In this document: positions 7,575 to 59,582 of the stretch, in pieces
Layout: every line of letters begins with the position of its first letter
Numbering within the stretch: the first letter of the stretch is position 1
Origin: Acidimicrobiia bacterium
GTDB lineage: Bacteria > Actinomycetota > Acidimicrobiia > Spongiisociales > ZC4RG35
Length of the DNA stretch: 64,000 bases
Assembly (NCBI GenBank): GCA_035706345.1
Contig: DASSVE010000163.1
Span: 12,095 to 76,094 of the forward strand
Reading direction: 5' to 3'
Translations under genes and position numbers: made by a program
The notes under the pieces: generated by a model
Seen by the model: only the letters and a program-made list of their open reading frames with translations
Told to the model about the DNA's origin: nothing
The model's database searches: none

Positions 7575-7581
7575 TCAACGA

Positions 7582-43448: not shown

Positions 43449-44309
43449 ATGAAGTACGACGCCCCCCGCTCTCTGGAAGAGGCCTGTTCCCTGCTCTCCG
43501 AGGGTGGTGGCGAGGCCAAGATCCTCGCCGGGGGCCAGAGCCTGGTCCCGATGCTCAAGCTGCGCTTCGCCTCACCCGAGATGCTGGTGGACATCAACGA
43601 GATCCCGGGTCTCGACTACCACGAGCGCGATCCTGACGGCGCCATCCGGGTGGGTGCCCTGTGCCGGCACGCCGACCTGGAACGGTCCGACCTCCTCGCC
43701 CGGCACCAACCGACCATGGCCGGGGCGGCACCCCTGGTCGCCGACCCGATCGTGCGCAACCGGGGCACGCTGGTCGGCTCGCTCTGCCATGCTGACCCGC
43801 AGGGCGACTGGGCATCGGTCGTGACCGCCCTGGACGGCTCGGTTGTGGCCCACAGCTCGAGAGGGCGGCGCACGATCCCGATCAGGGAATTGTTCAGCGG
43901 GCCTTTCCAGAACACGCTCGCCTACGACGAGATCGCGGTGGAGGCGGTGCTGCCGGCGCCAAAGGGCACCCCGGCCGGCGGTTACCTGAAGCTGGAGCGA
44001 CGGGTCGGCGACTACGCCACCGTCGGCGTGGCCGTGGCCGTCGATCTCGCCGCCGCCAAGGTGGCACGGGCCGGCATCGGCCTCACGGGAGTCGGTGGCT
44101 CCACCATCGCTGCCGACGAGGCGGCCGCCCTCCTCGTAGGGCAGTCGCTGTCACCCGAGCTCATCGGTGAGACCGCCGAGCTCGCCGCCCGGGCCGCCCA
44201 GCCGCACAGCGACCATCGCGGCAGCGCCGACTTCAAACGGCAACTGGTGCGGGTCTTCACAACACGTCTTCTGAACAGCATCACCAGGTCCGGAGAGGAG
44301 GCGGCCTGA
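43449..44309 (+). CDS. coxM: Carbon monoxide dehydrogenase medium subunit (FAD-binding)
   Basis: FAD-binding PCMH fold ([15 protein letters not shown]...) and CO dehydrogenase flavoprotein C-domain. Confidence 0.9.
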
Positions 44310-44310
44310 C

Positions 44311-44865
44311 ATGACCAGTCTTTTCGAGGAGATCAGCCCGGCCCCGGCCGACGACGTCCCTGTTCGCCAGGTGACCTTGACGATCAACGGGGAGCGGCGC
44401 TCCGCCATGGTCGAGCCCCGGCTCCTGCTGGTGCATCTGCTGCGGCAGGGTTTCAAGCTGACCGGCACCCACGTCGGATGTGACACGACCAACTGTGGCG
44501 CCTGCACGGTGCTGTTCGACGGCCGGCCGGTGAAGAGCTGCACGATGCTGGCCGTCCAGGCCGACGGCCACGATGTGATGACGGTGGAAGGCCTCGCCGG
44601 GCCCAGCGAGCTGCACGCCCTCCAGGAAGGGTTCAAGGAGGAGCACGGCCTCCAGTGCGGGTTCTGCACCCCGGGGATGATGATGGCGTCCAAGGCCCTG
44701 CTCGACGAGAACCCGCACCCCACCGAGGACGAGATCCGGTGGGCGCTCAGCGGGAACCTGTGCCGCTGCACGGGCTATCAGAACATCGTCAAGGCCGTCA
44801 TGTGGGCGGCGGACAAGCTCAGCCAAGGTGTTGCACCGGAGACCGATACGGAGGTGATGGCGTGA
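44311..44865 (+). CDS. coxS: Carbon monoxide dehydrogenase small subunit (2x[2Fe-2S])
   Basis: Plant-type ferredoxin cluster motif [11 protein letters not shown] and second cluster CGFCTPGM...CRCTGY. Confidence 0.92.
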
Positions 44866-47246
44866 CGGCTGTCGATGAGGTCAAGATCGGCGGTATCGGA
44901 GCCAGCCGGAAGCGGGTCGAGGACAACCGGTTCATCCGAGGCAAAGGCAACTATCTCGACGACATCACGCTGCCCGGGATGTTGCACATGGAGATCCTGC
45001 GCAGCCCCCTGGCACACGCCCGGATCAACTCCATCGACATCTCCAAGGCCATGGCCATGCCCGGTGTCCGCCTCGTGCTCACCGGGGAGATGATGGCGGC
45101 GCGCAACCTGGCGTGGATGCCGACGCTCTCCTACGACACCCAGGCAGTGCTGGCCACCGACAAGGTCAGGTTCCAGGGCCAGGAGGTCGCCTGCGTCATC
45201 GCCGACGATCCCTACATCGCCAAGGACGCCTGTCAGGCCATCGTCGTCGACTATGAGCCGCTCCCTGTCATCGTCAACCCGAACCAGGCGCTGGCCGACG
45301 GGGCGCCTCTGATCCGCGACGACAAGGAGAACCAGCCCGACAATGTGATCTACGACTGGGAGGTGGGCGACAAGGAGGGGACCGACCGCGCCTTCGCCGA
45401 GGCGGACGTCATCTCCAAGCTGGAGCTGCACTATCCCCGCTCCCACCCCTCCCCCATCGAGACCTGCGGGTCGATCGCCGACTTCAACCGGGCCACCTCG
45501 AAGCTGACCGTCTATCTGACCACTCAGGCGCCGCACATCATCCGGGCCGCGGTCGCCCTGGTCGCCGAGCTCCCCGAGCAGATGATCAGGATCGTGGCCC
45601 CTGACATCGGCGGCGGCTTCGGAAACAAGGTCCCGGTCTACCCGGGGTACGTGGCCTCCATCCTGGCCTCCATCCTCCTGGAGCGGCCGGTCAAGTGGAT
45701 CGAGGATCGGACCGGAAACCTGATCTCGACCGGTTTCGCCCGCGACGTCTACCTGAAGGGCGAGCTGGCACTTCGGCGTGACGGGAAGATCCTCGGTGTG
45801 CGGATGAACACCCTGGCCGACCATGGCGCCTTCTTCTCGGACGCCCAGCCCTCCAAATTCAAGATCGGGCTGATGCACTCGGCGTTCGCCTGTTACGACA
45901 TCCCGACCGCCCATCTGGTCGCCCGGGGCGTGTACACCAACAAAGCGCCCGGCGGGGTGGCCTACCGCTGCTCCTTCCGGATCACCGAGGCGATGTTCTT
46001 CCAGGAGCGAATGGCCCAGGCCGCCGCCGACGACCTGGGGATGGACCAGGCCGAGTTCCGCCGGATCAACTTCGTGCGCGACGACGACTTCCCGCACCGG
46101 ACCCCATTCGGGTTCCTGACCGACTCGGGTCAATACGGGAAGTGCCTGGACGTCGGTCTGGAGGCCATCGGCTACCAGGACTTCCTCCGCCAGAAGGAGG
46201 AGGCGGCCAAACGGGGCCGTCTGCTCGGGATCGGCATCTCGACCATGACCGAGCCGCTCGGCGCCGGCAACAGCCGGGAGTACGACATCCTCGGTATCAA
46301 GATGTTCGACTCCGCGGAGTTGAAGATCCACATGACCGGGAAGGCGCTCCTCCGCACTGGCGCCAAGTCCCAGGGTCAGGGGCACGAGACGACGTGGGCG
46401 CAGATCGTCGCCCACGAGCTCGGGATCCCGGCCGAGGACGTGGCCGTCGAGGAGGGCGACACGGACACGGCGCCGTTCGGCATGGGCACCTACGCATCCC
46501 GCAGCACGCCCGTGGCCGGGGCCGCCGTGGCCATGGTCTCCCGCAAGATCAGGGCCAAGGCTCGCAAGATCGCCGCCCATCTCCTCGAGATCTCCGAAGA
46601 GGACGTCGAGTGGGAGCTGGGCCGCTTCTACGTCCGGTCCAACCCCGAGCGGGGCGTGACCATCCAGGAGTGCGCGGCAGCCGCTTACTCCAACATGCCC
46701 GACGGAATGGAGCCCGGGCTGGAGAACGTGGCCTACTACGACCCGCCCAACCTCACCTGGCCCTTCGCCTGCTACATCGCCACGGTGGAGGTCGACCCCG
46801 AGACCGGGGTGTGGGATGTGCTCCGGGTGGTGGCCGTGGACGACTGCGGCGTCCGCATCAACCCGATGATCGTCGAGGGTCAGATCATGGGTGGTCTCAC
46901 CGAGGCGTACGCCATGTCCAACATGCAGTTCATCACCTTCGACGAGAACGGCAACTGCATCGGGGCCAACTTCACCGACTACCTGCTGCCCACCGCCTGG
47001 GAGACCCCGGGATTCGAGCTGCACGAGGTGGTCACGCCCTGTCCTCACCACCCAATCGGGGCCAAGGGGATCGGCGAGTGCGCCGCGGTTGGTGGCCCGG
47101 CCGCCTTCGTCAACGCGGTGATGGACGCTCTCAAGGGCACCGGGGTACGGAACATCGACATGCCCCTGTTCCCGGACCGTGTCTTTCAAGCTCTGCAGAC
47201 CGGTCGGGACGTGAGCGGCGCACCCCCGGTGAGGGTCGACGCATGA
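44862..47246 (+). CDS. coxL: Carbon monoxide dehydrogenase large subunit, form I (molybdopterin MCD cofactor, Mo-S-Cu site)
   Basis: GTG start overlapping the coxS stop. Active-site loop VAYRCSFR (form I AYXCSFR signature) and MoCo-binding GGGFGNK motif. The ORF-track start 44655 is over-extended. Confidence 0.9.
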
Positions 47247-48172
47247 GCCCGAGGTCGGGCGAGGGTTGGCGGATCCTGCAGCTGGCCGACGAGTTGGCCG
47301 CCAAGGGCGAGAAGTTTGCCCTGGCCACCGTGGTCTGGCGGCAGGCCCCTTCATCCGGCCATGAGGGCGCCCGCGCCATCGTCACCGCCGACGGGGAGAT
47401 CCACGGGTGGATAGGCGGGGCCTGCGCCGAGCCGGTCGTGATCCGTGAGGCGCAACGGGTGATGGCCGAAGGCGAACCGCAGCTGATCCTGCTCGGCGCG
47501 CCCGATGACTTCGGTCATGTTCCCGAGGGCATGCTGCAGGTCCCGATGGCGTGCCAATCGGAGGGGGCTTTGCAGGTCTACATCGAGCCGGTCCTGTCTG
47601 CACCGCGTCTGGTGGTGGTGGGCCGGTCCCCGATGGCGACCACCCTGGTCGACCTGGCATCGATCCTGGGGTGGCGGGCCGAGTTGGTCGACTCCCATGA
47701 CTTCACCGCCGACCGGGTCGAGAGGGACGCCATTGTCATCGTCGCCACCCAGGGCCACGACGACGAGGACACCCTGGAGCGGGCCGTGACCGCAGACCCC
47801 GCCTTCGTCGGCCTGGTCGCCTCCCGGAAACGGGGCGAGGCCGTCCTCGGATACCTCGCCGACCGTGGTCTCGACAGGGAGTCGCTGCAGAGGGTCCGAT
47901 TCCCTGTGGGGGTGGATCTCGGGCACACCACACACAACGAGATCGCGGTCTCGGTGCTCGCCGAGTTGGTCTCCCTCCGGGCCAAGGGCGAGCTGGAAAG
48001 AACCGCGACGGCCGTCACCGAGCCGCCGGCCACCGCCATCGACCTGGTTTGCGGGATGACCGTGCCGGCCGACGAGACCAGCCGCCCGTTCGTCTACCAA
48101 GGCACCACTTACTACTTCTGCGCTCCGGGATGCCGGACCGCGTTCGAGAAGAACCCGACTGCCTACCTCTGA
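47243..48172 (+). CDS. coxF: XdhC/CoxF-family accessory protein fused to a C-terminal YHS/TRASH-type metal-binding domain
   Basis: XdhC_CoxI N-domain (FALATVVWRQAPSSGHEGARAIVTADGEIHGWIGGACAE), Rossmann-like XdhC_C domain (PRLVVVGRSPMATTLVDLASILGW), C-terminal DLVCGMTVPADE...YYFCAPGCRTAF (YHS motif). Confidence 0.8.
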   Translation: MSPRSGEGWRILQLADELAAKGEKFALATVVWRQAPSSGHEGARAIVTADGEIHGWIGGACAEPVVIREAQRVMAEGEPQLILLGAPDDFGHVPEGMLQVPMACQSEGALQVYIEPVLSAPRLVVVGRSPMATTLVDLASILGWRAELVDSHDFTADRVERDAIVIVATQGHDDEDTLERAVTADPAFVGLVASRKRGEAVLGYLADRGLDRESLQRVRFPVGVDLGHTTHNEIAVSVLAELVSLRAKGELERTATAVTEPPATAIDLVCGMTVPADETSRPFVYQGTTYYFCAPGCRTAFEKNPTAYL

Positions 48173-48184
48173 GGAGAAGACAGA

Positions 48185-48769
48185 GTGCTGATCAAGAACT
48201 CGATCGAAGTCGACCAGCCGATCGACAAGGTGTGGGAGTTCTGCCAGGACGTGCCCCAGGTCGCGTCGTGTCTCCCCGGCGCCGAGCTCACCGACGAGCT
48301 GGGCCCCGACCAGTACGCCGGGAAGGTCGGTATCGCCATGGGCCCGGTCAAGATGCAGTTCGCCGGGACCGCCGACGTCAAGCAACGCGACCCCGAGACC
48401 AAGACCATCATCATCGACGCCGCCGGCGCCGACGCCAAGGGGCAGGGTCAGGCGGCCCTGGGGCTCTCCGTCCGTCTGGTCCCCACGGCCGGTGGCACCA
48501 GACTGGAGGTGGAACAGGACATACAGCTGTCCGGGGCCGCGGCCCAGTACGGGCGGGGCATGATCAGCGACGTCTCACAGGTGATGATGCGCGACTTCGC
48601 CGTCAACATGCAGGCCCGTCTCGACGCGTTCGCCCGTGGCGTCAGCCCGGCCCAGGTGCAGACGGCGCAGAGTGCAAGCGGGCTCACGATCGGTTTGAGG
48701 GCGGCGTGGATGGCCTTGAAACGGGTGGCCAGGCGCTTCTTCCTCCCCTACCAGCCAACGGGTAACTGA
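48185..48769 (+). CDS. coxG: CoxG (SRPBCC-family CO dehydrogenase subunit G)
   Basis: MLIKNSIEVDQPIDKVWEFCQDVPQVASCLPGAELTD...DAAGAD...; polyketide-cyclase-like SRPBCC fold typical of CoxG. Confidence 0.8.
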   Translation: MLIKNSIEVDQPIDKVWEFCQDVPQVASCLPGAELTDELGPDQYAGKVGIAMGPVKMQFAGTADVKQRDPETKTIIIDAAGADAKGQGQAALGLSVRLVPTAGGTRLEVEQDIQLSGAAAQYGRGMISDVSQVMMRDFAVNMQARLDAFARGVSPAQVQTAQSASGLTIGLRAAWMALKRVARRFFLPYQPTGN

Positions 48770-48779
48770 GGAGGTCGAC

Positions 48780-49034
48780 ATGACATGGTGGTGGATCGGG
48801 AACGTGATCCTGCTGGTAGCGGTGATCCCCGTGCTGATAGCCCTGCTCAACCGGGTGCTGGCGGCGCTGGAGCGGATCCGGGGAGCATCGGACCGGATAT
48901 TGGCGGGCGGTGTGCAACTGATCGGAGAGGTCGATCGGGTGCCTGAGCTGCTCGCAACGACAGACGAGACCATCGAAGACGTGTCGGTCGGCGCGGTCAG
49001 GTACGCCGGGTCGGTCGCCAAGCTGCTGGGTTGA
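48780..49034 (+). CDS. Small single-pass membrane protein, paralog 1 of 5 (84 aa)
   Basis: N-terminal TM helix (WWWIGNVILLVAVIPVLIALL) then an amphipathic helical segment. GAGGAGG RBS. GC3-rich. Confidence 0.6.
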   Translation: MTWWWIGNVILLVAVIPVLIALLNRVLAALERIRGASDRILAGGVQLIGEVDRVPELLATTDETIEDVSVGAVRYAGSVAKLLG

Positions 49035-49044
49035 GAGGAGAGTC

Positions 49045-49272
49045 ATGCCAGCTGCAGCCGTAGTCACCCTGGTGCTAGCGACGCTGATAATCGCCGCCGC
49101 GGCACTGGGCCTCATCCGGGTTATAGGCCATCTCTCGGCGATCTTGAAGACGCTGCGCGCCCTCACCGGAGGCGTCGATGTGGTCGCCGAGAAGACCAGC
49201 ACCGTTCCCGCCGTCGTCGGTTCTGTGAACGCCAACCTGAAGCCGGTCAGCGACTTCGCCGAGTCGATCTAG
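49045..49272 (+). CDS. Small single-pass membrane protein, paralog 2 of 5 (75 aa)
   Basis: TM helix (AVVTLVLATLIIAAAALGLI) plus amphipathic tail. GAGGAGAG RBS. Confidence 0.6.
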   Translation: MPAAAVVTLVLATLIIAAAALGLIRVIGHLSAILKTLRALTGGVDVVAEKTSTVPAVVGSVNANLKPVSDFAESI

Positions 49273-49278
49273 GGGGTC

Positions 49279-49542
49279 GTGATGAGTGAATTGTTCGAGG
49301 GCAACACCGGCTGGCTGGTCGGATACATCATCGGGATCGTCGTGGTCCTGGTGGTCGTGGCGCTGGTGGTCCCGATCCTGGTCCTGGCCCGAAAGATCGG
49401 GAACGAGGCGGAGCTGATCAACGAGAGCCTGAAGCGGTCCGTGCAGAACACGGCCGCCCTGGCCGATCTGGCCACCACCAACACCATGGCGATCAACGTC
49501 ATCGAGGGCCTGAAGCGCGGTCGTCAGCGTCTGGGAGGTTGA
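49279..49542 (+). CDS. Small single-pass membrane protein, paralog 3 of 5 (87 aa)
   Basis: TM helix (WLVGYIIGIVVVLVVVALVVPILVLA) plus amphipathic tail. AGGGGG RBS. Confidence 0.6.
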   Translation: MMSELFEGNTGWLVGYIIGIVVVLVVVALVVPILVLARKIGNEAELINESLKRSVQNTAALADLATTNTMAINVIEGLKRGRQRLGG

Positions 49543-49832
49543 GGATGGTTCTAGGACTCACCGAATCGCAGGAGACCCTTTGGACCATCGCCAACTGGGC
49601 CGGGCTGGCCGTTGTCGTGGCGGTGGCCGTCCTGCTCACCATCCTGGTTCTCCTGGTGCGGCGGATCGATCACAAGGTGGTCGAGATCAAGGCGACCCTG
49701 AAAGAGGCCGAGGCCAACACCGCCAAGGCCTCCCTGCTCGACACCACGTCGGCGGGCGTCGACATGGTCCTCGCCGAGGGTCTCGAGCATCACCTCTTCC
49801 TGGGCCGGGTGCTGGGGAAGGTGCGCTCATGA
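49539..49832 (+). CDS. Small single-pass membrane protein, paralog 4 of 5 (97 aa)
   Basis: TM helix (WAGLAVVVAVAVLLTILVLLV) plus amphipathic tail. ATGA overlap with paralog 3. Confidence 0.6.
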   Translation: MRMVLGLTESQETLWTIANWAGLAVVVAVAVLLTILVLLVRRIDHKVVEIKATLKEAEANTAKASLLDTTSAGVDMVLAEGLEHHLFLGRVLGKVRS

Positions 49833-50188
49833 ACGGGCTGGTGCTGTTCACCGTGATCGACATCGTCCTGCTGATCGCCGGTCTGGCGATCTACCTCTGG
49901 ATCGTCGGCTCACAGCTCAATCGGATCGCAGCCAATTTGGAGGAGTGCGACGAGCTGGTGGCGAAGATCAACGCCAATGCCGCCACCATCGAGGGCAACC
50001 TCGAGCACGTGAACCGGACCGGCGGTGTCATCGCCGGCGCATTGCCGCTGCTGTACAGCATGGCGGAGGGCATCGTCACCGGGGCCACCTACGACCCGGA
50101 GAAGGTCCCGGAGCGTGGCCCGGCCGTGCCCGCGTCCGGTCGTCGGCGTTCCCGACTCCACGAGGCGGTCGGCTACCGGCCGGACTGA
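49829..50188 (+). CDS. Small single-pass membrane protein, paralog 5 of 5 (119 aa)
   Basis: TM helix (LVLFTVIDIVLLIAGLAIYLWIV) plus a longer amphipathic tail. ATGA overlap with paralog 4. The ORF-track start 49580 is over-extended. Confidence 0.6.
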   Translation: MNGLVLFTVIDIVLLIAGLAIYLWIVGSQLNRIAANLEECDELVAKINANAATIEGNLEHVNRTGGVIAGALPLLYSMAEGIVTGATYDPEKVPERGPAVPASGRRRSRLHEAVGYRPD

Positions 50189-50189
50189 G

Positions 50190-50633
50190 TCAGGGTCGGG
50201 ACGGGTCCCGACCCGTGGTCAGGGGGCCGGTGGTGCCGGGGGCGTCGTAGTCCCCGATCCAGTGCTCCTCCCAGGCCTGGTCGTAATGGTCGGAGTTGCA
50301 CCCGGGTTTGTAGATGGCGACCAGCTCGCGGGTGATCTGCTCCCGATGCGTCGGCAGCGCTCCCGGTGCCTCCAGATAGCAGACGTGGAGGCGGTAGCGA
50401 TCCCCTCCCACCCTGTTCAGCCAGCACCGGGCTGCGGGATGACGAAACGGGAACCCCTCCCCGCTCAGGTCGTCGCTGTGACCGACGTAGATCACTCCGT
50501 AGCGCTCGGGTTTGGCCTCAGGCTCGGGCCGATAGAGGAGGGCGTAGACACCGGCCCTCTTGGGCGGTGTCCAGCCGGCGAGGAGCCGGGGACCCTCGAA
50601 CGAGTAGCCGGCGAGGGTGCCGAGACGGATCAC
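50190..50633 (-). CDS. Hypothetical protein with a GIY-YIG-nuclease-like motif set (147 aa)
   Basis: GVYALLY...(17 aa)...YGVIYVGHSDDLSGEG...R...E...ELVAIYKPGCN resembles the GIY/YIG-R-E-N pattern of the GIY-YIG superfamily. GTG start overlapping (GTGA) the upstream acidic-protein gene. Confidence 0.45.
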   Translation of the reverse strand: MIRLGTLAGYSFEGPRLLAGWTPPKRAGVYALLYRPEPEAKPERYGVIYVGHSDDLSGEGFPFRHPAARCWLNRVGGDRYRLHVCYLEAPGALPTHREQITRELVAIYKPGCNSDHYDQAWEEHWIGDYDAPGTTGPLTTGRDPSRP

Positions 50634-50953
50634 TCGGCCTCCTCCCCGGTGACCCAGGCGTCGGGTATGTCCTGGTACCAGTCCATCTCCTCCTCGTCGG
50701 CGATGGTCTCCACGTTCACGATGGGCCACACCGGCAGACCGGCCTTCTGGACCGCCTCGCCGAACACGTCCCGGGCCAGGAGAACCGCTTGGTCGGAGTC
50801 GTCGGCCTCGACCAGGATCTGGATGCCATAGGAAGGCGTGCCCATCCCGGTGGCGATGCCACCGTGGACCGCCACGGCGTCGGCCAGCTCCACCACCTCA
50901 TCGAGGGAGATCACCCGATCGCCCTCAGCCTGCAGTGACACACTCCACATCAT
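50630..50953 (-). CDS. Hypothetical acidic protein (107 aa)
   Basis: GC3-rich; Asp/Glu-rich C-terminus (ADEEEMDWYQDIPDAWVTGEEAE). Translationally coupled to the downstream GIY-YIG-like gene. Confidence 0.45.
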   Translation of the reverse strand: MMWSVSLQAEGDRVISLDEVVELADAVAVHGGIATGMGTPSYGIQILVEADDSDQAVLLARDVFGEAVQKAGLPVWPIVNVETIADEEEMDWYQDIPDAWVTGEEAE

Positions 50954-50960
50954 GAGACGC

Positions 50961-52097
50961 TCATCTCAGGCCGGGGAGCACTTCGGCCAGCGACTCCAGC
51001 CCGGCCAGGTCGCGGCCCGACATCAGGAGGTCGATGTGTGGCTCGGCCACGATCATTCCGAGGCTGCCGGGGAGGTCTCCGACGTCCTCGCCGACATGGG
51101 GGTTGACCCACACCACCTTGTGGCAGAGCAGCGAGAGCCTCTCCATCGCCTGTTCGAGGACGGCGGGATCGCCTCGATCGAGCCCGTCGGAGCAGATGAC
51201 GACGATCGCCCCACGGCTCATCCCGCGGCGACCCCATCCCTTCACGAATGCAGTGATCGAATCGCCGATCCGGGTCCCACCCTCCCAGTCGAAGACGAGA
51301 CGGGCGGCCCGATCCAGTGCATCGTCAGGTCTCCGTCTCTCCAGGGCCGGGGTGATCCGGGTGAGACGGGTCCCGAAGCAGAACACCTCGACCTTGGTGC
51401 TGGCGCGCCGTGCCGAGTAGGCGAACTGCAGCAGGTTGCGGGAGTACTCGGCCATGGATCCGGAAACGTCCAGAAGCAGGACCAATGGCCGGATCTTGGG
51501 CCGTCGGCTGCGCCAGAACAGCTCTGTTGGCTCCCCCTGCTGACGCATGGTGGCCCGGACCGTCCTTCGCAGGTCGGGGCGACCCGATGCCGCCGGCCGG
51601 GTCCGTCGGGTTCGGCGTCGGGGCGGGATGAGCTTCATCCGGTTCATGATCCGACGCAGGGCTGCGAGCTCCTCCTCGGTGCAGAGTGCGAAGGCCTTGT
51701 TGCGCCAGATCTCGATGTCCGACGCCACCAGACCGAGGGTCGCCTCCTCCTCCCGGTCCGTGCCCTCCGGGCCCGATTCGGTGGCCGGGACCTCGATGAC
51801 CGCCTGGTTCTCGATCTCCGATCTCTTCAGGACGGCGCGCACCGGCTCGGGCAGCCGGTCGTCGTAGCCGAGGAAGTAGCGGCGGAACACCCGGTCGTAG
51901 ATGGGGATCTGCTCCCGTTTCGTCAACAGGGTGGTCCTCCCCGCCCAGTACAGGTCGAGGATGTCACCCGGCTCCAGGACCGCCATGGCGGCGCAGTAGG
52001 CGAGCACCTCGCCGGTCCCCACAGCCAGGCCCTCGTCTCTCAGCTCGGCGCCGAAGTCGGCGACCATCTCCACGAAGGGGAGACGGTCGTCAGCCAT
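50961..52097 (-). CDS. VWA-domain protein (second CoxE-like paralog)
   Basis: C-terminal VWA with MIDAS (LVLLLDVSGSM...T...CSDGLD). Start overlaps the upstream MoxR gene by 8 nt. Confidence 0.8.
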   Translation of the reverse strand: MADDRLPFVEMVADFGAELRDEGLAVGTGEVLAYCAAMAVLEPGDILDLYWAGRTTLLTKREQIPIYDRVFRRYFLGYDDRLPEPVRAVLKRSEIENQAVIEVPATESGPEGTDREEEATLGLVASDIEIWRNKAFALCTEEELAALRRIMNRMKLIPPRRRTRRTRPAASGRPDLRRTVRATMRQQGEPTELFWRSRRPKIRPLVLLLDVSGSMAEYSRNLLQFAYSARRASTKVEVFCFGTRLTRITPALERRRPDDALDRAARLVFDWEGGTRIGDSITAFVKGWGRRGMSRGAIVVICSDGLDRGDPAVLEQAMERLSLLCHKVVWVNPHVGEDVGDLPGSLGMIVAEPHIDLLMSGRDLAGLESLAEVLPGLR

Positions 52098-52959
52098 CGA
52101 CCAGCTCGTCGATCCGCTCCAGGACCATCTCGAGGTCGTCCCGCTCCTTGACCACGGCACCCAGAGTCTCGGAGGCGGTGACCTTGTCGAGATCGGGCTC
52201 GCCCAGGACCTGGAGAGTGCTGACCCAGTCGATGGTCTCGGCGACGCCGGGCGGCTTGGCCAGGTCGAGCTGGCGCAGACGGTTCACCGCCGCCACCACT
52301 TTGCGGGCGATCTCCTCGGTGGCGCCAGGTGCCCGCACCAGGACGATCTCGACCTCCCGCTCGGCGGACGGGTACGGGACCCAGTGGTACAGACAGCGCC
52401 GTTTCAACGCGTCGTGCAGCTCGCGGGTCCGGTTCGAGGTCAGGATCACCAACGGCGGCGAGTCGGCGCTGATGGTCCCGATCTCGGGGATGGTGATCTG
52501 GAAGTCGGAGAGCAGCTCGAGCAGGAAAGCCTCGAACTCGTCGTCGGCGCGATCGATCTCGTCGATCAGCAACACCGCTGTCGACCCGGCGCGGACGGCG
52601 GTGAGAAGCGGTCGCTCCAGGAGGAACTTGGGGCCGAAGAGCTGGTCCACCTGGGTCTCGTCGGCGAGCTGCGCCTCGGAGAGGGCGCGGATCTGCAGCA
52701 TCTGACGGGCGTAGTCCCACTCGTACAGGGCCTGGTTGGTGTCGATGCCCTCGTAGCACTGGAGACGGATCAGACGACGATCGAATACCGAGGCCAGCGC
52801 CTTGGCCAACTCGGTCTTGCCCACCCCGACCTCACCTTCGAGCAACAGGGGCCGACCCAGCTCCATGGCCACGTAGACCGCCGTGGCCAGACCGCGGTCA
52901 GCAAGGTACCCGCCCTCGGCGAGACGCTCGGTCAGGGTGGCGACGTCGGTGGGGGCCAT
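52090..52959 (-). CDS. MoxR-family AAA+ ATPase (second CoxD-like paralog)
   Basis: Walker A GEVGVGKTELAK, Walker B LLIDEIDRAD. Roughly 55% identical to coxD at 41061 by eye. Confidence 0.85.
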   Translation of the reverse strand: MAPTDVATLTERLAEGGYLADRGLATAVYVAMELGRPLLLEGEVGVGKTELAKALASVFDRRLIRLQCYEGIDTNQALYEWDYARQMLQIRALSEAQLADETQVDQLFGPKFLLERPLLTAVRAGSTAVLLIDEIDRADDEFEAFLLELLSDFQITIPEIGTISADSPPLVILTSNRTRELHDALKRRCLYHWVPYPSAEREVEIVLVRAPGATEEIARKVVAAVNRLRQLDLAKPPGVAETIDWVSTLQVLGEPDLDKVTASETLGAVVKERDDLEMVLERIDELVDG

Positions 52960-52975
52960 GCCCGGCCCCTCCCCG

Positions 52976-53230
52976 CTACTGATCGTTCCGGCCAAGGACG
53001 AGGTCGCGGATCGAGCCGCCGTCGGTGCTCAGCTTCCCCTCACGCTCCAATCGGGCCCGCCAGGCGGCGCCGATGTCGGTGCCGGGCTCGGCGAGCCCGT
53101 CGAAGGACACTCCCCGCATGTTCCGGCACGGCTTGGAGGGGCTGCAGTCCTCGTCTAGGTCGAAATGATCGTGACTCACCATCCAGACCGACTGGAGGAC
53201 ATCGGCGCTGGTGTCTTCCTGGGCATTCAT
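52976..53230 (-). CDS. Small hypothetical protein (84 aa), translationally coupled (ATGA) to the upstream XdhC gene
   Basis: GC3 about 85%. Start overlaps the xdhC stop. No recognisable motif. Confidence 0.4.
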   Translation of the reverse strand: MNAQEDTSADVLQSVWMVSHDHFDLDEDCSPSKPCRNMRGVSFDGLAEPGTDIGAAWRARLEREGKLSTDGGSIRDLVLGRNDQ

Positions 53231-54147
53231 CGCTCGACCAGTCTACCGGCGGAGGCCCGCTCGGCTATCGCCTCGGCCACGATCGAGACCGCGATCTCCT
53301 CCGGTGAGTCGGCCCCGATGTCGAGCCCTGCAGGGCCCCGTACCCTGCTCAGGTCGGTCTTGCCCCGGTATGCCAGCCAGTCGGCCCGATCGCCCTGCAT
53401 CTTGTGACTCCCCACCGAGCCGATGTACCCGGCACCACTGTCCAGGGCGGCGGCGAGAGCCGACCCGGCCAGCTCCAGGTCGTGCGCAGCCACCACCACC
53501 ATGTCGTTGGCCGACGTGGTCGCGATCAGACCGGTGGCTTCGGCGGTGCTCGTGCTGAGACGCGACTGCCAGCCCAGGTAGGCGCCCAGCGAGACCAACG
53601 CCTCGGCAATCGGCCCGCCGCCAACGACGATCAGTTGGGGGACGGCGGAGAACACCGAGACCACCCGATTCTCGGCGATGGTCGAACCCGGTGGCCCTTG
53701 GAACGCCTCCCGAATCACATCGTCGGCGTCGGCGACATTCTCCTCCCAGTAGACCTCGCCGGCAACCACGGTGTCGTCGGCCAGCCGGACGTCGAGACAG
53801 AACTTGCGGCGCTCCAGAGCCAGGTCCCATACCCCTCCGGGAATCGTCTCGGCAGGAATCACCAGACATGTGGCGCGGCCACCGGATGCCAGACCGGCGA
53901 TCAGGGCGTCGACCTCGGAGACCTCGAGCTCTACGAGCCTGCCCTCGGCGAGTCTCCCGACGTGATCGGCGAGCTTCCCGTCGAGTGCGCCGCCGGCGAC
54001 ACCACCGATCCGGCCCCCACCCGGTGTGAACACGACGGCATCGGAAGGGTCGGAGACCGCCAGTCCCTCCGAGGCCACTATCCAGGCCACATCAGCCCTG
54101 GTGCCCGCCTGGAGACACGCCGCAACGGTGAGCGCGATGCTGTACAT
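53227..54147 (-). CDS. XdhC/CoxI-family molybdoenzyme maturation factor (306 aa)
   Basis: N-domain (AWIVASEGLAVSDPSDAVVFTPGG...GGALDG) and Rossmann-like C-domain (PQLIVVGGGPIAEALVSLGAYLGW). ATG at 54147. The ORF-track start 54429 is over-extended. Confidence 0.78.
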   Translation of the reverse strand: MYSIALTVAACLQAGTRADVAWIVASEGLAVSDPSDAVVFTPGGGRIGGVAGGALDGKLADHVGRLAEGRLVELEVSEVDALIAGLASGGRATCLVIPAETIPGGVWDLALERRKFCLDVRLADDTVVAGEVYWEENVADADDVIREAFQGPPGSTIAENRVVSVFSAVPQLIVVGGGPIAEALVSLGAYLGWQSRLSTSTAEATGLIATTSANDMVVVAAHDLELAGSALAAALDSGAGYIGSVGSHKMQGDRADWLAYRGKTDLSRVRGPAGLDIGADSPEEIAVSIVAEAIAERASAGRLVER

Positions 54148-54196
54148 GACGGGGACTCTACGTCCAGGTCCTGAATGAGAGTCGACGGCTACCGTT

Positions 54197-54511
54197 GTGC
54201 GCATGAGAAGCCAATTGGCACTCCGTGACAAGTGGGTCAGCGAGGGCAAGAAGGTGGCCGTGGCCACGGTGATCAAGGTCCACGGCAGCGCCCCCCGACC
54301 GGAAGGGTCCAAGTTCCTCGTCTCGTCCGACGGTGACATGGAGGGCTCGGTGAGCGGGGGTTGTGTGGAGAACGACGTCTTTCTCCATGCCCAGGAGGTC
54401 ATCGAGACCGGGAAGCCCAAGAAGGTCACCTACGGCATCGCCGACGAGGACGCCTTCGAGGTCGGCATGTCCTGCGGCGGCACCATCGACGTCTTCATCG
54501 AGCCCTGGTGA
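54197..54511 (+). CDS. Stand-alone XdhC_CoxI N-terminal-domain protein (104 aa)
   Basis: [41 protein letters not shown]...[10 protein letters not shown], the canonical XdhC N-domain including the GGC motif. Confidence 0.65.
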
Positions 54512-55281
54512 GCGATCTGAATCAGGCCATCCAGAGCCTGCTCGACGCCGAGGTCTTCGGCTCGGTCGCCACCGTCGTCGAGGGCCCGGACACGGGGGCC
54601 AAGGCGGTGATCGACGGCGCCGGCGTGATACTCGCCGGTGAGCTCCCGGCGGCCATCGTCGACGACGTCGTCGCCGACGCCCGGACACTGATGAGTCACG
54701 AGCAGCATCGAACCCTCGACTACGGCGAGCACTCCGTCTTCATCGAGACCCTGGCCCCGCCCCCCGATCTCCTCATCTTCGGTGCGGTGCACATCGGCCA
54801 GGCCCTGGCTTCCTTCGCCACCCAGATGGGTTATCGGGTCACGGTCGTGGACTCGAGGGCCCCCTTCGTCACCGAGGCCCGGTTCCCGACGGCCCATCGT
54901 CTCCTGGTGGGCTGGCCCCGGGATCTCATGGACCAGCTCCAGTTCGACCGCCGCACCTGGGTGGTCGTGCTGTCCCACGACCCGCGGCACGAGACCCCTC
55001 CGCTGGAGGCCGCGCTCAAGTCGGAGGCCCGCTACATCGGGGCCATGGGATCGAGACGCACCCACGATCTGAGGGCTGCCCGGCTGAAGGAGCTCGGGTT
55101 CGACGACGAGGACCTGGCCAGGATCCACTCCCCCGTCGGCCTCGACATCGGCGCCGAGACCCCGCAGGAGGTCGCGGTGTCGATCCTGGCCGAGATGACG
55201 TTGGTCCGGTACGGAGCCGGCTCGGGGATCTCGCTGCGCGGGGTCGAGGGCCGGGTCCACAAGCAACGCGGAGACGAGTGA
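54508..55281 (+). CDS. XdhC-family protein (second XdhC_CoxI-like segment plus Rossmann-like XdhC_C domain). GTG start overlaps the preceding stop (GTGA) in a different frame, so this may be a split or frameshifted gene.
   Basis: [28 protein letters not shown]...[28 protein letters not shown]...IGAMGSRRT. Confidence 0.65.
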
Positions 55282-55955
55282 CCGACCACGACCTGGCCGC
55301 CCTGGTCATGTCGGCGGAGCGCCGCTGGATGGACAGCTGGGTGGCCGGGCCGACCTACGAGGGGACACCGATACGCCGCGGCGGGCTAGCGCCCGACCTG
55401 GAACTGACCGACGAGAGCGGGGAACGGGTCAAGCTGAGCGGGTTCTGGGAGAACGGTCCCGCCCTGGTCATGATGTGGCGTCACCTCGGGTGCGGGTGCG
55501 GTCTGAAGCGGATCGACCGGCTCTCGGAGGAGTACCAGCGCTATCTCGACGCCGGGCTCGAGGTCGTCGTGGTGGCCCCCGGGGAGAGGGAGCGGGTCCT
55601 CGCCTACAAGGAGAAGTACGGGCTGTTGCCGCCGGCGCTCGCCGACCCCGAGTACCGGGCTCATCGCGCCTTCGGCCTGTCTCATTGGTCGAGAGAGCAG
55701 GTGTTGTACGGCCAGCCCGACGAGTACTGCTCGCTGACCACCGAGATGGGCGAGAGATACCAGGCGGAACGTCGCGCCGAGGGGCGCAGCCTGGTCGACG
55801 ACGCCTGGATGCAGTCCGCCGAGTTCGTGGTCGATCAGACCGGCACGATCAAGGTGGCCTACTACTACAACTACTGCGAGGACTACCCGGATCCACGCAT
55901 CTTCGAGACCGCGGCTCGTCTCGCCGTCTCCGACCTTCCCACAGATCGGCACTGA
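55278..55955 (+). CDS. Thioredoxin-fold (AhpC/TSA/redoxin-like) protein with a CGC motif
   Basis: 225 aa. [21 protein letters not shown] in the position of the peroxiredoxin/redoxin active site. GTG start overlapping the upstream stop. Confidence 0.5.
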
Positions 55956-55986
55956 GGGCGCCAGCCCCGTTCTCTACTCTCCCCCC

Positions 55987-58578
55987 ATGCTGTTGCTGGA
56001 GCGGGAGGCCCTGGTTGCTGCTCTCGACGAGCGTCTGACCGCGGCGGCATCGGGGTCAGGGTCACTGGTGCTGATCGCAGGTGAGGCCGGGGCGGGCAAG
56101 ACCTCGCTGATGCGCTCCTTCGTCTCCTCGGCGGGCGAGCGGGTGCTGGTGATCGAGGGCGCCTGCGACCCGCTCACAACCCCCCGGCCAATGAGCCCGC
56201 TGCTCGACTTCGCAGCCGATCCCGACTCGGGGCTAACGGGCATCGTTTCCGAAGGTCGGACCGGAATCGACGTGTTCGCCGAAGTCCTCGACCGGCTGAG
56301 GAACTCGATCCGTCCCATAGTGCTGTTCATAGAGGACATCCATTGGGCCGACGACGGCACGCTCGACTTCCTTCGCTACATCGGGCGACGTATCACTCAG
56401 ACCAAGTCGGTCATGGCCTGCACCTACCGGGACGACGAAGTGGGTGTGGATCACCCGCTTCGCTCGGTTCTCGGCCAACTGGTGCCACTCCCCTCCACGC
56501 ATCGCCTGACCGTTCCGCCGCTGACCCTCGATGCGGTCGCCCTCCTCGCCAAGGACCAGGCCCTGGATCCAGAGGAGCTGCTCGACCTCACCGGGGGCAA
56601 CGCCTTCTTCGTCACCGAGGTGCTGGCGACCGGCTCGGACCTGCCGGCCACGGTCCAGGATGCCGTCCTGACCCGGGTGGCAGGGCTCGGTCCCGAGACG
56701 CGCAGGGTGGTCGAATCGGTCTCGATCGCCCCCCGCTCTCTCGAGATCGACCGGGCTGCGGCACTGGCGAAGACCAGCGTCGAGAGCGCCGACGAGGCGG
56801 TCGGCGCCGGTGTGCTGCGCAGCGACGGTGTCAGCCTGGGCTTCAGGCACGAGATCGCCCGCGCCGCCGTCGAGGCGGCCATCCCGCCGGCCCGTCGTCT
56901 CCAGATGCATCGGTCGATGATCGCTCTCCTCGAGGAGGAGGGGATTCGGGACGCGGCCCGCATGGCCCATCACGCTCGTGAGGCACAAGAGCCGCATCTC
57001 ATCGCCCTCTACGCGCCCGAGGCAGGAGAGCGCGCCCTCGCCAATGGCGCGAGACGGGAGGCGGTCGAGTTCTACCGAACGGCCCTGGACCACGGAACCG
57101 GGATGGACGAGGATGCAGCCGCCGACCTCAGGGTGAAGCTGGGGAGCCAGCTCCGGATCATCGATCGGCCCGAGGAGTCGATCGAGCATCTCGACCTGGC
57201 CATAGCCCGCTACCGGGAGACGGGCGCCACCGAGAAGCTGGCCGACGCATTGGGTCTCCTCCAGGGGGCGTTGTGGAACCTGCGCCGCTTCGCGGGAGGT
57301 CAGGCTGCGATCGACGAGGCCATCGCCGCATTGGAGCCCCTCGGTCCTTCCGAGGCATTGGGCATGGCCCTCTACCGCGACGCCCACCACCAGATGCTGG
57401 CCCGCCACGCCCGCCCGGCCTTCGCGCAGATCGAACGCGCCGCCGCGATCGCCGATCGGGTCGGGTCGGAGCGGGTGGGATGGCTGGCGCAGATGATGAC
57501 TGGCACCATCCACATCGTGGTCGGCGATGCCGAAGAGGGGGCACGTCTGCTGGAACACTCGGCGCAGAGGGCCGAAGACATGGAGGACAGCCACTTCCTC
57601 TCCATTGCCCTTGGGATGTTGGGCAGTGGCGGCGGCGAGGCTCGTCTGTATCCAATCGCCATCGACGCCCTGGAGCGGGGTGTCGAACAAGGCATAGCCA
57701 CCGACGAGGACTACGGGGTCGCCTACAACCGGTCCTGGCTGGCACGAATCGCCTTCGAGCAGGGCCGGTGGGACGAGGTCTCCGAGATGACGGAGCTGGT
57801 CTACAGGAGCACCGCCCAGCGAGAAGGGATCGCCTTGCTGACGGCGATGAGCGCCCTGGGAAGGGTCAGGGTGCGACGGGGCGACCCGGGTGGGCTCTCG
57901 CTTCTCGAGGAGATGGTGGAGTTGGGAAGGGACCACGAGCTGCAGCACGCCTGGACCGCCATCTGCGGCAGGGCGGAGTATCACTGGCTCACCGGCGCCC
58001 CCGAGAAGGGTCTCGACGCCCTCGGACCGGCCTACGAGCGCGCCCTGGACACGGACAGCTCCTGGGCCCGCGGGGAGATCGGGTTCTGGATGTGGCGGGC
58101 CGGGGCCATCGACCGGCCCCCTCCTGGCGCCGCCGAGCCGTTCGCTTTGCAGATGTCCGGTGATTGGCGTGCCGCCGCCGACACCTGGAGGGCGATCGGC
58201 TGCCCCTACGAGGTGGCGATGGCGCTCGCCGACGGGGAGGTGGAGGACCAGCTGGAGGCGCTGGAGATCCTGGACGTCTTGGCGGCCCGCCCCCTTGCCG
58301 ATCGGATCAGGGCCTCGCTTCGCGACCGGGGCCATCCGGCGGTGCCGAGGGGACCAAACCGCGACACCATGTCCAACCCGGCGGGCCTGACCAACCGTCA
58401 ACTCGAGGTAGTCCGGCTCATAGCCGAAGGGCTCAGCAACGACGAGATCGCCGCCAGGCTGTTCCTGTCGAAGAAGACAGTCGAGCACCACGTCTCCGCC
58501 ATCTACTCCAAGCTGGGTGTCGAGACGCGCGCCAAAGCGGTCAAGGCCGCCGCCGAAGTCGGGGCGTTGCAGAGATAG
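55987..58578 (+). CDS. LuxR-family (LAL/MalT-like) transcriptional regulator: N-terminal AAA/NACHT-like ATPase, TPR-like middle, C-terminal LuxR HTH
   Basis: Walker A GEAGAGKTSLMR. C-terminal LTNRQLEVVRLIAEGLSNDEIAARLFLSKKTVEHHVSAIYSKLGV (LuxR/FixJ HTH). Confidence 0.85.
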   Translation: MLLLEREALVAALDERLTAAASGSGSLVLIAGEAGAGKTSLMRSFVSSAGERVLVIEGACDPLTTPRPMSPLLDFAADPDSGLTGIVSEGRTGIDVFAEVLDRLRNSIRPIVLFIEDIHWADDGTLDFLRYIGRRITQTKSVMACTYRDDEVGVDHPLRSVLGQLVPLPSTHRLTVPPLTLDAVALLAKDQALDPEELLDLTGGNAFFVTEVLATGSDLPATVQDAVLTRVAGLGPETRRVVESVSIAPRSLEIDRAAALAKTSVESADEAVGAGVLRSDGVSLGFRHEIARAAVEAAIPPARRLQMHRSMIALLEEEGIRDAARMAHHAREAQEPHLIALYAPEAGERALANGARREAVEFYRTALDHGTGMDEDAAADLRVKLGSQLRIIDRPEESIEHLDLAIARYRETGATEKLADALGLLQGALWNLRRFAGGQAAIDEAIAALEPLGPSEALGMALYRDAHHQMLARHARPAFAQIERAAAIADRVGSERVGWLAQMMTGTIHIVVGDAEEGARLLEHSAQRAEDMEDSHFLSIALGMLGSGGGEARLYPIAIDALERGVEQGIATDEDYGVAYNRSWLARIAFEQGRWDEVSEMTELVYRSTAQREGIALLTAMSALGRVRVRRGDPGGLSLLEEMVELGRDHELQHAWTAICGRAEYHWLTGAPEKGLDALGPAYERALDTDSSWARGEIGFWMWRAGAIDRPPPGAAEPFALQMSGDWRAAADTWRAIGCPYEVAMALADGEVEDQLEALEILDVLAARPLADRIRASLRDRGHPAVPRGPNRDTMSNPAGLTNRQLEVVRLIAEGLSNDEIAARLFLSKKTVEHHVSAIYSKLGVETRAKAVKAAAEVGALQR

Positions 58579-58683
58579 GGGCGGCTCCCCTCCGACATAG
58601 GGGTGCGCCCCGATGATCCGCTCCCCTTCTCTCCATACCTTCGCCCCCAGGCCGGAGATGCCGGCAGCGAAAGGAGAGAGGAA

Positions 58684-58974
58684 ATGCCTCGATACATGGT
58701 GGAAAGGGACTTCTCGCAGGGTCTGGAGATCCCGACCGATGCCGACGGGCTCAGGACATGTCTCGCCGTGGTGAACAACAACGCCACCGAGCAGGTGACC
58801 TGGATCCAGTCGTTCGTGACCGACGACCATCTGAAGACCTTCTGCATCTACGACGGCCCCTCGCCGGAGGCGATCCGCAAGGTCGCCGGGCTCAACGACC
58901 TCCCGGTGGACAAGATCTCCCAGATCAGCGTCCTCGACCCCTACTTCTACGTCAGCGCCGGGAGCCCGTCATGA
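58684..58974 (+). CDS. DUF4242-like small protein (96 aa)
   Basis: MPRYMVERDF...FCIYDGPSPEAIRKV...; GAAAGGAGAGAGG RBS. Family call from memory. Confidence 0.5.
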   Translation: MPRYMVERDFSQGLEIPTDADGLRTCLAVVNNNATEQVTWIQSFVTDDHLKTFCIYDGPSPEAIRKVAGLNDLPVDKISQISVLDPYFYVSAGSPS

Positions 58975-59543
58975 GGAGACGACTGATGGCGGCGTTGGCG
59001 GCCACCCTCCTGCTGGCAGCCTGTGCCGCCGAGGGTGAGGGCACGTCGCCGACTGTCGAAACGGGCAGCCACGGCGCCGATGCCCAAGTCGACTCGTCGA
59101 AGATCGCCGCCGCCAGTCTGGCCACCGCAGCGTTCCAGGATGTCGCGGCGGCGGAGTCGGCCGGCTACGGCTCCACGATCGACGCCCTGGGTTGTTTCGA
59201 GAGCTCCGAGGAAGGGGGGATGGGTCTCCACTATCTGAACGAGGGTCTCATGGACGACCAGGTGGACGTGACCCAGCCCGAGGCGCTGGTTTACGAGATG
59301 AACGCCGACGGCGAAATAGCCGGTCTCGTGGCGCACGAGTACATCGTCCCCGTGGACGCATGGACTTCGGAGGAGCCACCGAGCCTCTTCGGCCTCGAGT
59401 TCCACCAGCACCCGGTGCTCCCGCTGTGGGTGCTGCACGCCTGGATCTGGAAGGACAACCCGGCGGGCATGTTCAACGACTGGAACCCGAAGGTGCGCAT
59501 GTGCCCCGAGGGCGCGCCGGTGTTCGGGGTGGATCTGCCCTGA
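58971..59543 (+). CDS. Hypothetical lipoprotein (190 aa)
   Basis: MRRRLMAALAATLLLAACAAEG lipobox; ATGA coupling with the preceding gene. Confidence 0.55.
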   Translation: MRRRLMAALAATLLLAACAAEGEGTSPTVETGSHGADAQVDSSKIAAASLATAAFQDVAAAESAGYGSTIDALGCFESSEEGGMGLHYLNEGLMDDQVDVTQPEALVYEMNADGEIAGLVAHEYIVPVDAWTSEEPPSLFGLEFHQHPVLPLWVLHAWIWKDNPAGMFNDWNPKVRMCPEGAPVFGVDLP

Positions 59544-59582
59544 CCGGGGAAACCAACCGCTTGCGCACATCGTTGGGATGGT

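Follow-up and report, generated by a model that had tools for sequence, protein, structure and literature searches.

A coupled pair of small genes in the carbon monoxide dehydrogenase accessory operon of Actinomycetota, encoding an acidic protein and a divergent protein of predicted GIY-YIG fold

Two small genes, here called A and B, form the end of a minus-strand operon in 64,000 nucleotides (nt) of DNA from an Acidimicrobiia bacterium (GCA_035706345.1, contig DASSVE010000163.1, positions 12,095 to 76,094), the whole of which is referred to as the window. Gene A (50630..50953, minus strand) encodes 107 amino acids (aa) from an ATG at 50953 to a stop codon at 50630-50632, and gene B (50190..50633, minus strand) encodes 147 aa from a GTG at 50633 to a stop codon at 50190-50192, such that the start codon of B lies over the stop codon of A in a GTGA overlap (50630..50633, minus strand). 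Upstream on the same strand are coxE (50961..52097), encoding a VWA_CoxE protein (PF05762, E 6.6e-55) with an intact DxSxS metal ion-dependent adhesion site (MIDAS) motif, and coxD (52090..52995), encoding a MoxR-type AAA+ ATPase (AAA_5/AAA in Pfam, NCBIfam MadB-family match, 1.3e-86). An initial annotation had described an acidic protein and a GIY-YIG-nuclease-like protein, translationally coupled at the tail of a MoxR/VWA operon, and the open reading frame (ORF) listing and the sequence bear out the position and strand of both genes, their overlap and their place in the operon. As a fixed component of the accessory operon of actinobacterial carbon monoxide dehydrogenase (CODH), the pair is inherited vertically, and it is most likely an undescribed, lineage-specific helper of CODH maturation on a repurposed nuclease fold.

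Protein A was correctly described as acidic with an Asp/Glu-rich C-terminus: its isoelectric point (pI) is 4.05, it contains 23 Asp and Glu against 3 Lys and Arg, and its last 22 residues hold 10 Asp or Glu and no Lys or Arg. Its orthologs have pI values of 4.05-4.61 (78/78). The motifs that had been quoted for B were found at G28-V29-Y30, Y49-V50-G51-H-S-D-D-L56 and I107-Y-K-P-G-C-N113. The longest ORF of B starts at 50729 and would give a protein of 179 aa; this version was rejected as the gene, and 50633 was taken as the start, because every homolog starts with M/L/V-IRLG and the 4-base overlap recurs in relatives. An NTGA overlap of A and B is retained in 74 of 78 related loci. Homologs in a collection of 5.8 billion proteins numbered 1150 for B and 217 for A, all unnamed, and the labeled relatives are Acidimicrobiia or Actinomycetota metagenome-assembled genomes (MAGs), save some MAGs labeled Acidobacteriota or Acidobacteria. 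Because homologs are many, at least 593 species genomes encode B and the AlphaFold2 cores are confident, A and B are genuine genes, not chance ORFs of DNA with a high guanine plus cytosine (GC) content. Apparent A-B fusion proteins (P0247, P0255, P0264, P0267, P0273, P0304) were rejected as frameshifted assemblies, because good matches alternate in them with Arg/Pro-rich out-of-frame stretches.

The genomic context of the pair was tested by tblastn with the window proteins against 80 species loci, which were the best of at least 593 genomic matches to B. When one genome per species was scanned, B was encoded in at least 593 species genomes of Acidimicrobiia and of Actinomycetes genera; carriers include Angustibacter, Amycolatopsis, Planosporangium, a Mycobacterium MAG, Micromonosporaceae, Streptosporangiaceae, Trebonia, Frankiaceae and Nitriliruptoraceae. 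Angustibacter sp. McL0619, Amycolatopsis ultiminotia and Planosporangium flavigriseum are carriers that can be cultured. In 80/80 loci, CoxE was encoded just upstream of B and in its orientation, CoxD preceded CoxE in all 76 loci where CoxD matched, and A stood between CoxE and B in 78/80. At the two other loci, both from Actinomycetota (L051, about 8228-8250; L083, about 9984-10001), B begins a few bases after the CoxE stop codon and A is missing. A form I CoxL of more than 80% identity was encoded no more than 10 kb away in 64 of the 80 loci, downstream and convergent in 60 of these, and the 16 loci without a nearby CoxL are on mostly short contigs. The AYxCSFR signature was present in 64 of 83 related loci, and a divergent member (L091, 58% identity) showed the same gene layout as the window. 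Within the window, CoxD and CoxE overlap by 8 nt, a gap of 7 nt separates CoxE from A, and A and B overlap by 4 nt. A and B are thereby translationally coupled inside the accessory operon, as is expected of cox accessory genes, and they share location and orientation with coxMSL and coxDE, as is expected of accessory genes of form I Mo-Cu CODH.

Sequence constraint on B is comparable to that on CoxE. Median identity to the window was 88% for CoxL, 77% for CoxD (68-87% across 76 related loci), 66% for B, 62% for CoxE and 56% for A; thus, B is as constrained as CoxE. Across classes B is conserved at 59-77%, and its identity correlates with that of CoxL (r = 0.62, n = 58). These findings do not agree with the earlier proposal that the pair might be a hitchhiking selfish or defense module. 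Because B is tied to CoxE in all of the inspected loci and form I coxL is close in most of them, that idea is not supported and fails by the refutation that the initial annotation had itself named; furthermore, the GC content of the pair (0.678) matches that of the whole window (0.672), and neither PADLOC nor PHROGs gave a match for A or B. Occurrence of the pair elsewhere without MoxR/VWA neighbors, which the initial annotation had proposed to look for, was not seen at any of the 80 species loci inspected. The ORFs listed for 44000-60000, not all of which were compared with protein families, included none noted as an integrase or transposase. The statement that the pair has no obvious role in molybdoenzyme maturation reflected missing annotation and not evidence, and genomic linkage argues for such a role. 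Among the possibilities originally raised, a repurposed fold fits best.

The fold of B was modeled with AlphaFold2 using 42 homologs. Its core, residues about 5-116, was predicted with a local distance difference test score (pLDDT) of about 90 and comprises beta strands at 13-17, 28-34 and 46-53, an alpha helix at 68-74, a beta strand at 82-88 and an alpha helix at 94-108, and disorder is predicted for the tail (residues 117-147). A Foldseek search of the PDB with this model returned GIY-YIG proteins as its first 19 matches (E 5e-3 to 7e-2, probability 0.87-1.0), all of them chains of the UvrC N-domain (1yd6/1yd2-5) or R.Eco29kI (3mx4/3mx1/3nic), with template modeling scores up to 0.64 on the target. 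Past rank 19 the list drops to noise, with I-TevI at rank 25. Among the viral models of BFVD, named matches were almost all GIY-YIG or intron-associated endonucleases.

Sequence models gave a fainter signal. B had no Pfam or NCBIfam match even at E <= 1 and did not reach the gathering score of PF01541; this family was the only recurring weak Pfam match, found for 7 of 38 members of the wider B family with a best E of 0.011. When the wider family (alignment A3) was compared by hhalign with a UvrC/I-TevI alignment, the two matched over 83 columns with a probability of 84.7% and E 6.6e-6, while the clade found with cox genes (the cox clade) alone gave a probability of 6.5%. The target alignment consisted of Thermotoga maritima UvrC, Escherichia coli UvrC and I-TevI, of which the first and last were verified against PDB entries and the E. 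coli sequence was assumed to be correct. The wider family profile searched against PDB sequences gave a chance match alone, to IcmQ at E 1.5. On the predicted model, B is a very divergent GIY-YIG-fold protein. Assignment to the GIY-YIG superfamily thus stands with respect to fold and remote profile similarity, and does not stand with respect to a significant Pfam match or the set of catalytic residues.

Residues of B were mapped to UvrC from the hhalign alignment, and their conservation was counted in 199 unique cox-clade sequences and in 83 distant relatives of about 110 aa. The map equates Y30 with Y19, Y49 with Y29, E59 with R39, T101 with E76 and N113 with N88, so that of the canonical set Tyr/Tyr/Arg/Glu/Asn, B keeps Y30, Y49 and N113 and carries Glu and Thr at the Arg and Glu positions. 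Within the cox clade, position 30 is Tyr in 135 sequences and Phe in 64 (32%), against Tyr in 67/83 distant relatives, and position 49 is Tyr in 177/199, against 74/83. Position 59 is Glu in 178/199 and never Arg in the cox clade, whereas Arg is found in 58/83 distant relatives. Position 101 is Ala (66), Thr (60), Val (39) or Met (19) in 184/199, with no acidic residue among the six commonest, whereas 55/83 distant relatives have Glu. Asn at position 113 is present in 198/199 and 72/83, respectively. PDB matches to B include the UvrC point mutants Y19F, Y29F, Y43F and N88A, so the four residues have been targets of mutation; they are important for function. As judged from these alignments, the cox clade has replaced two of the five canonical residues and tolerates loss of a third, while the distant relatives look catalytically intact. 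Because the fold of B agrees with the superfamily and its sequence-model scores and catalytic residues do not, B was classed as a degenerate GIY-YIG-fold protein and not as a GIY-YIG nuclease.

Other residues of B are held strictly. Invariant or nearly invariant in the cox clade are F12, G14, P15, R16, D55, P62 and H65 in the N-terminal region and a loop; C70 (190/199), W71 and R74 in the first helix; P90, G91, H96, R97, E98, E103, L104 and Y108 in a loop and the second helix; and P110, C112 and N113 in the C-terminal loop. The tail is also conserved, with W125-I-G-x-Y129, P132, T135-G-P-L-T-T140 and R142 (W125-I-G-x-Y-x-x-P-x-x-T-G-P-L-T-T-x-R142). Predicted disorder together with conservation like that of the core would fit a tail that becomes structured upon contact with a partner.

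The distant relatives emerged from a profile search of 1.84 billion representative proteins, which revealed a second class of B relatives, about 110 aa long and covering the core alone. These unannotated proteins, of which P0322 and P0305 are examples, are homologous to B, with profile E values of 1e-12 to 1e-19 and core identities of 34-36%, and share with it F12, G14, P15, H65, C70, W71, R97, L104, P110, C112 and N113. Unlike B, they mostly keep the canonical Arg and Glu and have neither the tail nor an A-like partner. Three that were sampled lie in low-GC genomes, in variable or otherwise non-cox regions, and A, CoxD, CoxE and CoxL were absent from the vicinity of all three. The first is near phage integrase genes, beside an ORF with a faint GIY-YIG match and a DUF87/TraG-like ATPase. 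The second adjoins an integrase gene, a ThsB_TIR gene, a Schlafen/AlbA_2 (SLFN_AlbA_2) gene and prophage capsid and portal genes, and the third lies in a region of archaeal-type genes that includes class I lysyl-tRNA synthetase. Most simply read, the cox accessory operon of Actinomycetota took up a member of a small nuclease family of variable genome regions, whose nuclease chemistry was then lost. At locus L084, a 142-aa ORF (7535-7963) with a faint Pfam GIY-YIG match is next to a B relative of about 110 aa and is followed by a DUF87/TraG-like ATPase, and these genes may together form a small module within a variable region. A further distant relative, P0362 (256 aa), has a B-like domain after an N-terminal region that resembles, by eye, an anti-sigma zinc-finger segment and a hydrophobic stretch, so that the fold is present there in another architecture.

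The AlphaFold2 model of A has a beta-alpha-beta-beta-alpha-beta core (residues 1-89) with a pLDDT of about 96; from about residue 90 onward the protein is disordered and rich in Asp and Glu. Its PDB matches were heterogeneous ferredoxin-like proteins (best E 1.6e-3), including S6 permutants, bacterial microcompartment (BMC) shell proteins, acylphosphatase, the NikR C-domain and ACT domains. As modeled, A is a generic ferredoxin-like acidic protein, and the fold does not narrow its assignment further. Its invariant residues are G11, D12, E19, E22, D25, G32, G36, G38, Y42, G43, G72-L-P74 and P77, with no Cys or His among them.

The accessory operon, in the order XdhC-like gene, orf84, coxD, coxE, A, B, converges on the CODH structural genes and the genes that follow them. 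Its first gene is XdhC/CoxF-like (53227..54147, minus strand; Pfam XdhC_C 7.9e-25); its likely start is 54147, the longest ORF extends to 54429, and the homolog at related locus L001 has 307 aa. Likewise, coxE probably starts at the ATG at 52097, although an ORF extending back to 52160 is the longest. Between the XdhC-like gene and coxD is a conserved 84-aa ORF, orf84 (52976..53230, minus strand), which overlaps the XdhC-like stop by 4 nt and has tblastn matches in 76 related loci at a median identity of 57%; an 83-aa gene is called at its place in L001. On the plus strand, window ORFs and Pfam matches of syntenic genes in related loci identify coxM (43449-44309), coxS (44311-44865) and coxL (44862-47246) as structural genes of a form I [MoCu] CODH, with the AYRCSFR signature at residue 367 of CoxL. 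These are followed by an XdhC gene fused to a YHS/TRASH domain (47243-48172, plus strand), assigned from Pfam matches of syntenic genes, which overlaps the coxL stop by ATGA; the same fusion follows coxL in L001 (14547-15536). YHS/TRASH is a copper-binding domain, and because XdhC is fused to it here, copper handling within the cox cluster is suggested.

Next on the plus strand are coxG (48185-48769; COXG match 4.7e-17) and five small genes for single-pass membrane proteins of 84, 75, 87, 97 and 118 aa (48780-50188), which converge on B, the last stop codon lying 1 nt from that of B. Counterparts of the five genes are present in 70-71 of 83 related loci, with median identities of 63-78%, and none matched a Pfam family; faint similarity of tm1 to tm2 and of tm3 to tm4 (E about 0.04) hints at old paralogy among them. 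Many related loci (e.g., L001 4365-6352, L003 4301-6288) have a second, divergent CoxD/CoxE pair of about 55% and 34% identity, which precedes a split XdhC (102 aa and 256 aa) and is accompanied by neither A nor B. A second CoxD/CoxE-like ORF was not noted at 44000-60000 in the window, the remainder of which was not searched for one. Just past the cox accessory genes, an 863-aa ORF (55987-58578, plus strand) resembles, by eye, a P-loop ATPase at its N-terminus and a LuxR-type helix-turn-helix at its C-terminus and is a possible regulator of the cluster.

The reading favored here, in which A and B work as part of the CODH system and B is no canonical nuclease, is given a probability of about 0.7. 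Under this reading the conserved 4-base overlap would provide A and B in a fixed ratio, their synthesis would be stoichiometric with that of CoxD and CoxE, and A and B probably form a complex. B would keep the GIY-YIG scaffold without the canonical catalytic Arg, the metal-binding Glu and, in part, the first Tyr, and because these have been lost, DNA cleavage by B is most unlikely. B probably works through two surfaces, a putative invariant polar pocket (E59, H65, C70, R74, H96, R97, E98, E103 and C112), suggested by conservation, and the invariant disordered tail. With these, B would most likely serve as a binding or hand-over module of the CoxD (AAA+)/CoxE (VWA) machine, which builds the CuSMoO2 active site in folded apo-CODH. 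A, as an acidic ferredoxin-like partner, may stabilize or mask B, or alternatively its acidic residues may engage the MIDAS site of CoxE. The fold of B was apparently recruited from small stand-alone GIY-YIG-like proteins of variable genome regions. In Oligotropha, CuSMoO2 assembly is posttranslational and follows folding, where sulfuration requires CoxD and a part in copper insertion is ascribed to CoxE/CoxF (PMC4240915), and several linked assembly factors are reported to be necessary for Mo-CODH maturation in actinobacteria (PMC12202499).

Several observations weigh against this reading. B occurs without A in 2/80 loci (L051 and L083), and A is therefore dispensable for B in some lineages. 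The synteny was inspected at the 80 best loci out of at least 593 genomic matches to B, and one B member of 51% identity, on a contig of 969 bp, lacks A upstream. None of the relatives of A and B in these searches has a proteobacterial label, and no counterpart is named in the Oligotropha cox literature consulted (PMC4240915; PMC6011924); for these reasons the pair is not a universal requirement. Finally, B retains Y49, H65 and N113 and has the invariant residues E98, E103, H96 and R97 on one helix, a pattern with which a relocated catalytic site would be compatible.

One rival is a sharper version of the maturation role, in which B is an enzyme or ligand carrier of CODH maturation with a rebuilt pocket (E59, H65, C70, H96, R97, E98, E103, C112) that would bind or transfer Cu(I) or sulfur, or bind or hydrolyze a phosphodiester other than DNA, for example the cytosine dinucleotide cofactor. 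The pocket residues, invariant or nearly so in the 199 sequences, include two Cys, two His and several Glu and Arg, the YHS/TRASH domain on the neighboring XdhC suggests copper handling in the cluster, and copper and sulfur insertion are CoxD/E/F-dependent steps (PMC4240915). However, no known metal-binding family matches B, and because distant relatives without cox context conserve C70, C112, H65 and R97 as well, these four may be structural; as a distinct account it is judged improbable. The statement that the remodeled pocket, with Glu for the catalytic Arg and with invariant His, Cys, Arg and Glu residues, is a new ligand site for Cu(I), sulfur or the dinucleotide cofactor, and that B together with A has a direct hand in assembling the CuSMoO2 center of actinobacterial CODH, is rather doubtful; if true, a nuclease fold would have been converted into a metallocenter assembly factor.

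It is also conceivable, and quite unlikely, that B is a non-cleaving nucleic-acid binder that regulates cox expression at the level of DNA or mRNA, with A as an acidic, nucleic-acid-mimicking anti-factor that sequesters it. Known members of the superfamily bind nucleic acid through the GIY-YIG scaffold, the core of B is basic (pI 8.86) while A is strongly acidic (pI 4.05), and synthesis of the two is coupled. Against this, a distal place in a maturation operon, translationally chained to CoxD-CoxE, would be unusual for a regulator, and the 863-aa ORF at 55987-58578 is, as called by eye, a dedicated LuxR/LAL-type regulator nearby. Furthermore, an invariant Cys/His/Glu pocket and an invariant tail are atypical of nucleic-acid binding, and a Pfam search detected no helix-turn-helix or other DNA-binding domain in A or B.

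An active GIY-YIG nuclease toxin or defense effector held in check by A as an acidic inhibitor or immunity protein, in a selfish module at the operon end, is extremely improbable: the fold of B, the small, very acidic and translationally coupled A, and the integrase, ThsB_TIR, SLFN_AlbA_2 and prophage genes near distant relatives would suit it, but the context is fixed in 80/80 loci and B co-varies with CoxL, unlike patchy toxin-antitoxin or defense genes, the catalytic Arg and Glu are replaced clade-wide and the GIY Tyr is often Phe, B twice occurs without A, neither a GC anomaly nor a PADLOC or PHROGs match was found, A has no DNA-binding antitoxin domain, and B evolves far more slowly across classes than typical immunity pairs. 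The initial comparison with toxin/immunity or nuclease/inhibitor pairs is therefore not supported, given the fixed CoxE context, the replaced residues and the loci with B alone. The marks of toxin-antitoxin and defense systems (patchy spread, variable neighborhood and mobility; an antidote that is always present; membership of known families) were not found, and A/B is not a new defense system.

Form I Mo-Cu CODHs of Actinomycetota are major sinks for atmospheric CO, their maturation is poorly understood, and production of the enzyme is difficult. At native expression, Kropp et al. purified only 2-5 ug CODH per liter, and complex maturation was cited (PMC12202499). A and B, conserved on the level of CoxE, with B in at least 593 species and the pair chained to coxD-coxE, are together with the further small genes of the cluster concrete candidates for missing Mo-Cu CODH assembly factors. 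Neither protein matches Pfam, NCBIfam, PADLOC or PHROGs, and full-text literature searches gave no description of GIY-YIG proteins with CODH or of these small cox-cluster genes. A and B also present a clear candidate for nuclease-fold exaptation, for which relatives in mobile contexts, with their catalytic residues kept, are available for comparison.

Comparison with known systems places the pair as follows. Nuclease/inhibitor and type II toxin-antitoxin pairs resemble A/B in consisting of two small, adjacent, co-transcribed genes with one acidic product, whereas A/B differs in its fixed context, degenerate active site and slow evolution. Such a pair adjoins Rv0368c of Mycobacterium tuberculosis (PMC6362051, Fig. 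1). Rv0368c lies beside the cox genes of that organism. The members of the pair are Rv0366c, a Zeta_toxin (PF06414), and Rv0367c, a ParD-like protein (PF11903) (PMC6362051). They were considered and rejected as homologs of A and B, which match no Pfam family. In the MoxR-VWA remodelers CbbQ/CbbO and NorQ/NorD, an AAA+ ring is joined by a VWA adaptor whose MIDAS grips an acidic client residue, and CoxE is likewise a VWA protein, with an intact DxSxS motif; we know of no small GIY-YIG-fold or ferredoxin-like accessory subunits of these remodelers. The CoxD/CoxE/CoxF system of Oligotropha (Afipia) carboxidovorans, like the window, has a MoxR-type AAA+ and a VWA protein with XdhC-family genes beside form I coxMSL. 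No counterpart of A or B is named for it in the literature consulted, and the actinobacterial cluster has further unannotated small genes, orf84 and the five for single-pass membrane proteins. Finally, the GIY-YIG superfamily (UvrC 1ycz/1yd6, I-TevI 1ln0, R.Eco29kI 3mx4; PF01541) has in common with B the alpha/beta fold and order of elements, the GVY and YVG strand pair and a His after the YIG strand, and the C-terminal helix of B is followed by P-x-C-N, which aligns to Y-R-P-K-Y-N88 of UvrC. B differs from the superfamily in the 19-residue spacing of its two Tyr and in an extra N-terminal strand, its conserved 30-residue tail has no counterpart there, and its genomic setting is a metalloenzyme accessory operon, as opposed to the repair, homing or restriction functions of GIY-YIG nucleases.

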